From Escherichia coli (GTDB lineage Bacteria > Pseudomonadota > Gammaproteobacteria > Enterobacterales > Enterobacteriaceae), in assembly GCF_003334335.1 (NCBI RefSeq), contig NZ_QOWQ01000040.1: DNA of 39,682 nt; one strand, 5' to 3'. The position numbers are program-made. Below are positions 39,553 to 39,682 of this stretch, piece by piece; within the stretch, counting starts at the first letter, position 1; each line of letters begins with the position of its first letter.

Positions 39553-39682
39553 TGTATTCAGGGCAAGATTACGAAAGCCCGCTCCCCGCAAGGACTGACG
39601 CCAGATAGTTTCTGTCCATGGCTGCTTTTCGCATCTTACGTCTTAACCCTGCCTTGAATACCTTATCATTCGTCAAAATATT

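Follow-up and report, generated by a model that had tools for sequence, protein, structure and literature searches.

Identity of the reading frame at the window end

The 39,682-nucleotide stretch of Escherichia coli DNA analyzed here (contig NZ_QOWQ01000040.1, referred to as the window) ends inside a minus-strand reading frame downstream of yhhJ, which raises the question of what this truncated frame encodes and whether it marks the border of an Rhs element. Our reading, to which we assign a probability of roughly 0.96, is that the window ends 124 bp inside ISEc1 (H-rptB), the outermost component of the RhsB element, and that its final 114 nt are the tail of yhhI. ISEc1/H-rptB, yhhI (b3484) and the RhsB element are all part of the already known biology of E. 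coli K-12, and the feature is an ordinary one.

Translation of the minus strand at 39569-39682 yielded 38 codons, corresponding to 37 residues followed by a stop codon (39569-39571), and contained the peptide that a sequence-only reading of this DNA had quoted when it proposed the C-terminus of a minus-strand protein at this position. Comparison with K-12 identified the frame as the 3' end of yhhI (codons 342-378 plus stop), equivalent to residues 342-378 of the 378-aa K-12 YhhI (WP_000420980.1). Many complete E. coli genomes, K-12 MG1655 among them, match window positions 38700-39682 at 100% identity, and under this match they annotate yhhJ as an ABC transporter permease and yhhI as "ISAs1-like element ISEc1 family transposase". 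The coding status of the 114 nt follows from this nucleotide identity to annotated genomes, since a 37-codon open frame is not significant by itself. The 37-aa fragment alone had no match among the NCBIfam models; it lies outside the modelled domain, and the family search therefore needed the full-length protein.

Full-length K-12 YhhI scored 412.4 bits against the NCBIfam model NF033564 ("ISAs1 family transposase", cut-off 70), with the match spanning model positions 1-314 of 314 and YhhI residues 29-344. Pfam searches with the same protein identified PF13808 (DDE_Tnp_1_assoc, residues 8-94, 1.9e-33) and PF01609 (DDE_Tnp_1, residues 102-343, 1.7e-29), while no solved structure was related to YhhI by sequence at E <= 1. 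The yhhI ORF of the full-length K-12 copy is intact and covers the entire family model, and its product is a predicted DDE transposase of the ISAs1 family. Given that the NCBIfam match occupies residues 29-344 and DDE_Tnp_1 residues 102-343, hardly any of the modelled domain falls within the window; the part of YhhI encoded there is the basic C-terminal tail, nearly all of which lies outside the conserved catalytic domain. Similarity of the complete ORF to ISAs1 proteins had been singled out in advance as the point on which the proposed H-repeat assignment would stand or fall, and with NF033564, PF13808 and PF01609 all matched, the ORF proved to be an ISAs1-family transposase and the assignment stood.

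Boundaries of ISEc1

The outer end of ISEc1 was located at window position 39559, 10 nt outside the yhhI stop codon. Copy alignment and pairing of the ends assign 39559-39682 (minus strand) to the outermost 124 bp of ISEc1/H-rptB, with the remaining 1167 bp situated beyond the window. When the four K-12 H-repeats (yhhI, ydcC, ybfL and ybfD) were aligned together with their flanks, similarity extended from CAGGGAAAGATCA to ...TAATCTTGCCCTG and was lost at the outer terminal inverted repeat (39559-39571, CAGGGCAAGATTA). The ends start with CAGGG, and the outer repeat pairs with CAGGGAAAGATCA at the far end; the terminal inverted repeats are imperfect, with 10 matches in the first 11 positions (CAGGGCAAGAT vs CAGGGAAAGAT). 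At the K-12 RhsB locus the element measures 1291 bp between its ends and carries yhhI as its single gene. The boundary at 39559 was confirmed by other genomic ISEc1 copies, which begin to match the junction query at base 119/120, i.e. at window 39558/39559. Among the K-12 copies, the RhsC locus (extract 10446-12854) was found to hold two tandem degraded H-repeats, the ybfL pseudogene and a truncated ybfD with a rearranged 3' part, and the RhsC element additionally contains ybfQ, a small "inactive transposase" fragment.

No target-site duplication was found in the 8-10 nt outside the ISEc1 ends at the K-12 locus, where the flanks (...CCTGTATT and GCCGTTGA...) are unrelated. According to the ISfinder description, elements of the ISAs1 family are about 1.2-1.5 kb long, have short terminal inverted repeats and CAGGG ends, and are accompanied by direct repeats that range from none up to about 10 bp. 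ISEc1 agrees with this description in size and terminal repeats and differs from elements with a target-site duplication in having none, which is not disqualifying for family membership because the range includes none. The likely cause of its absence is rearrangement after insertion, as both flanks are truncated, and the deletion or recombination history discussed below would account for it.

Sequence between yhhJ and ISEc1

The gene preceding the element, yhhJ, is located at 38280-39404 on the plus strand (K-12 annotation 13581-14705, offset 24699), encodes an ABC transporter permease and is a conserved chromosomal neighbour that does not belong to the element. Directly downstream, at 39411-39452, an imperfect palindrome (TTGCCCGATGCG...CGCATCGGTGCAA) was noted that resembles a degenerate REP or palindromic unit, an assignment made by eye and not by model. 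A 155-nt alignment (86%) pairs this region with REP-like sequence that neighbours IS1397 at a different locus, and the region is also conserved in the ST131 allele of the interval. Comparison with ST131 further revealed the left half of a REP/palindromic unit at 39475-39494 (TAGGCCGGATAAGGCGTTTA), the right half of which is missing, while the ST131 allele has an uninterrupted REP at this site (TAGGCCGGATAAGGCGTCACGCCGCATCCGGC). The same half-site also flanks intact IS1397 copies at two other loci. The stretch from 39411 to 39494 as a whole, a degenerate palindromic unit plus half a REP, resembles a small BIME, as judged by eye and by the ST131 comparison only.

Between the half REP and ISEc1, the window carries a 64-bp remnant of the IS3-family element IS1397 (39495-39558, minus strand), which represents its transposase-distal terminal end (TGAACTGACCCCCAAAACCTGGACA...), sits in the REP loop and is truncated precisely by the end of ISEc1. 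The 65-nt alignment from which it was defined pairs IS1397 bases 1-65 with window 39495-39559 at 96.9% identity, base 39559 doubling as the first base of ISEc1. The IS1397 end (TGAACTGA[A/C]CCCCAAAACCTGGACA...) is a typical IS3-family end, and the strand of the remnant was taken from the orientation of the IS1397 transposase CDS at two other loci. In other strains, the junction query matched next to transposase genes of IS1397, at yphB and at gldA, and these matches stopped exactly at the ISEc1 boundary. The insertion specificity of IS1397 for the palindromic units of BIMEs is known (Clement et al. 1999, listed among the references of PMC3116915).

Neither the window nor the RhsB locus of K-12, with the far side of ISEc1 included, contained any further IS1397 sequence. 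A simple insertion of ISEc1 into IS1397 was considered and ruled out, as the rest of IS1397 is absent from that far side. When a chimeric query of the flank joined to IS1397 was compared with 5426 complete genomes, none covered at least 80% of it, and an intact IS1397 in the yhhJ-proximal REP was thus not encountered in this set. The searchable literature yielded nothing relevant on an IS1397 remnant near RhsB. The missing half of the REP was probably lost together with the IS1397 and ISEc1 events. A promoter and terminator scan of 39250-39682 identified no promoter-like sites and a single terminator-like hairpin, which is located inside yhhJ and corresponds to the rate expected by chance.

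Gene content beyond the window edge

To read the neighbourhood past position 39682, genomes were used that share 1 to 25 kb of identical sequence with the window. K-12 MG1655 is collinear with the final 14,983 nt of the window, with eight substitutions (29026, 31925, 32224, 32868, 34528, 34679, 36966 and 38217) and no gaps; none of the differences falls into the IS part. Over its last 24,983 nt, the window is 100% identical to strain MS 124-1, which had the top bit score, and to a few others. With eight substitutions relative to MG1655, the window is K-12-like but not MG1655. Within this collinear stretch, the first of two YhiJ/YhiL-family genes (30589-31863) has 424 open codons, whereas the adjacent gene (32493-34115) has 540. 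As the window shows no gaps relative to K-12, where the first gene is annotated as a frameshifted pseudogene, the frameshift of K-12 appears to be shared.

In both K-12 and MS 124-1, the order of genes past the edge is yhhI, the yrhC pseudogene, yhhH, rhsB and nikR. The remainder of yhhI extends to a start codon 1023 nt past the edge, and according to the annotation it is followed by the yibA-like pseudogene yrhC (351 nt; K-12 extract 16147-16497, about 1.2-1.5 kb past the edge) and then by yhhH. In K-12 coordinates rhsB occupies 1974 to 6209 nt past the edge, after which nikR and the nik operon follow. This order bears out the statement that the neighbour of yhhJ is yhhI, and together with the 412-bit NF033564 match and the presence of rhsB beyond the edge in K-12 and MS 124-1 it supports the proposal that yhhI is the H-repeat (ISAs1-like) transposase gene of the RhsB element.

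RhsB is a 1411-aa protein. Its MS 124-1 version reached 2646 bits with NF041261 ("RHS element core protein"), for which the cut-off is 2000, and contains YD repeats, an RHS-associated core domain (TIGR03696, residues 1170-1247) and a Pfam RHS match, while its C-terminal tip corresponds to DUF4329 (3.4e-39). YhhH is an Imm-NTF2-2 "NTF2 fold immunity protein" (3.4e-26), and yhhH overlaps the 3' end of rhsB. The predicted products and their order arrange rhsB-yhhH in the way that is standard for Rhs polymorphic toxin loci. From what is established about this family, RhsB would be a polymorphic toxin delivered to neighbouring cells and YhhH presumably its cognate immunity protein. The pseudogene yrhC retains the initial 116 codons of a gene for a YibA-like HEAT-repeat protein, carries one internal stop and is cut exactly at the inner end of ISEc1; a full-length 280-aa version of the yibA-like gene is present in strain GTEN_97. 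Annotation of yrhC is inconsistent across records, where it appears as "lyase", as "HEAT repeat domain-containing protein" or as yrhC, with the remark "missing C-terminus". The genome paper on E. coli W places rhsB within the interval b3481-b3485 (PMC3032704).

Alleles of the nikR-yhhJ interval

Comparison of alleles at the same chromosomal site located the point at which the RhsB-specific segment begins. The ST131 allele matches the window up to 39491 and the O55:H7 allele up to 39404, exactly the yhhJ stop codon, and both rejoin K-12 immediately past the nikR stop codon. These break points put the length of the K-12-type segment at about 6.6 kb and its start at about 39492, so that roughly its first 190 bp, and with them the beginning of the RhsB-specific segment, lie inside the window. 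The earlier expectation of an Rhs element starting just past the edge therefore held in part: rhsB, a true RHS core gene, is indeed located past the edge, but the element itself starts within the window, with the H-repeat at 39559 and the segment at about 39492.

RhsB is an accessory island that is absent from this site in ST131 and O55:H7. In ST131 (extract 9793-15614) its place is taken by an island encoding a GntR regulator, PTS IIA/IIB/IIC components, an FGGY kinase, HPr and a class II aldolase, without RhsB, and O55:H7 RM12579 (extract 9706-16268) combines an ST131-type sugar island with a hicAB toxin-antitoxin pair directly after yhhJ. The sugar island that replaces RhsB in these strains measures roughly 5.8 kb. 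In O55:H7 RM12579 we also noted that rbbA (extract 5846-8581) is annotated as a pseudogene with an internal stop. A third allele was found in GTEN_97 (extract 9895-16020), which has the same IS1397 remnant and the same ISEc1 end, followed by an IS with a 713-bp internal deletion that diverges from the window at 39605. Its Rhs array is longer. About 2.2 kb of extra sequence, containing a fragment of IS630, a gene with sel1 repeats and an orphan RHS tip, separates the yibA-like gene (an intact yibA) from the internally deleted ISAs1 copy, and the array also includes several NTF2-fold or DUF6258 immunity-type genes. The exact junction of flank and ISEc1 was present in 1839 of the 5426 complete genomes. 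The nikR-yhhJ interval is polymorphic among these alleles and is a hot spot of replacement.

Alternative explanations and proposed history of this ISEc1 copy

Stop-free frames of 37 codons are common by chance and the fragment alone is without a family-model match, both of which would suit a chance ORF or non-coding DNA at the window end. This explanation is already refuted by the finding that the frame coincides exactly with the 3' end of an ORF of 378 aa that scores 412 bits against the ISAs1 transposase model, and its probability is negligible. It is also extremely unlikely that the fragment derives from an ISAs1/ISEc1 copy without a following Rhs element, such as another nikR-yhhJ allele that shares the first 124 bp of the IS. 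The polymorphism of the interval would allow for such a copy, as would the median of four places per E. coli genome that match the junction query and the existence of the GTEN_97 allele with its internally deleted ISAs1 and its different, larger Rhs array. Alleles of the GTEN_97 type, however, diverge at 39605 while the window stays K-12-type through 39682, every full-junction genome among the matches listed annotates yhhI at this position, and rhsB is found downstream in both K-12-type genomes examined, one of which is 100% identical to the window over 25 kb. Even the variant allele of GTEN_97 is an Rhs array.

We further considered that ISEc1 at this site could be an active IS placed here by a simple recent transposition, its association with RhsB being coincidental. 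The full-length transposase ORF with complete model coverage and the presence of inverted repeats are compatible with activity, but there is no target-site duplication, the sequences on both flanks are truncated (an IS1397 end and a yibA-like gene), the occurrence of one and the same junction in 1839 genomes indicates a single old event, and three different Rhs elements of K-12 (RhsB, RhsC and RhsE) carry H-repeats at their distal end. Transposition of H-rpt elements has not been observed (PMC3032704), which also speaks against this explanation, and we regard it as very unlikely. In a mobilome preprint, where ISAs1 is named in passing, we found no evidence of ISAs1 activity. An idea to which we give somewhat more room, though it too is unlikely, is that the ISAs1 transposase could have a part in remodelling Rhs loci, for example through adjacent deletions or the capture of orphan tips, instead of being only an inert passenger. 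It is prompted by the repeated occurrence of H-repeats with an intact ORF at the distal ends of Rhs elements and by the truncated flanks seen here, and if it were true, the junction between the IS1397 remnant and ISEc1 would be a fossil of such remodelling that has gone unremarked until now.

For the preferred reading, in which the window ends within the ISEc1 copy of an RhsB element, the following history may be proposed, the order of events (IS1397, then ISEc1 plus deletion) being read from the end points only. IS1397 would first have inserted into the REP downstream of yhhJ, its known target. Arrival of ISEc1 and/or an IS-adjacent deletion or recombination would then have removed all but 64 bp of IS1397, and on the opposite side the 3' part of the yibA-like gene may have been lost in the same ISEc1/deletion step. 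Since then, this copy of ISEc1 has probably travelled with the RhsB island as a vertically inherited passenger and would not be actively hopping; that 1839 genomes have an identical junction points to an old event that happened once, with vertical inheritance afterwards.

Relation to known systems

The analysis confirms the textbook gene order of K-12 for this stretch and allows the window edge to be labelled as the start of the RhsB accessory island, with the practical use that the truncated ORF and the odd intergenic sequence in front of it will not be mistaken for something new. What it adds is small: the island and the IS now have exact boundaries in the numbering of the window, and ISEc1 was found to lie between a 64-bp IS1397 fossil and a truncated yibA-like gene. 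The overall picture is unchanged.

With regard to IS1397, the remnant resembles the intact copies at the yphB and gldA loci in being situated in a REP loop, but differs in that the window keeps only 64-65 bp, with no transposase and no second end. The other H-repeats of K-12, H-rptE (ydcC) and the two H-rptC copies (ybfL and ybfD), are the same IS, are highly similar in the shared stretch and each lie on the distal side of an Rhs core gene, but their flanks differ. Full-length genes are found in yhhI and ydcC, whereas ybfL (a pseudogene) and ybfD (a truncated 253-aa product) are degraded. To ISEc1/H-rptB (yhhI, b3484) of K-12 itself, the IS part of the window is identical without any detectable difference; the 1291-bp element and the junction are the same, and WP_000420980.1 is the protein in both K-12 and MS 124-1. 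Likewise, the locus corresponds to the RhsB element of K-12 (rhsB-yhhH-yrhC-yhhI in the nikR-yhhJ interval) in position, gene order and boundaries, the difference being that the window holds the outermost 124 bp of the IS and 64 bp of older IS debris, while the toxin and immunity genes are located outside.
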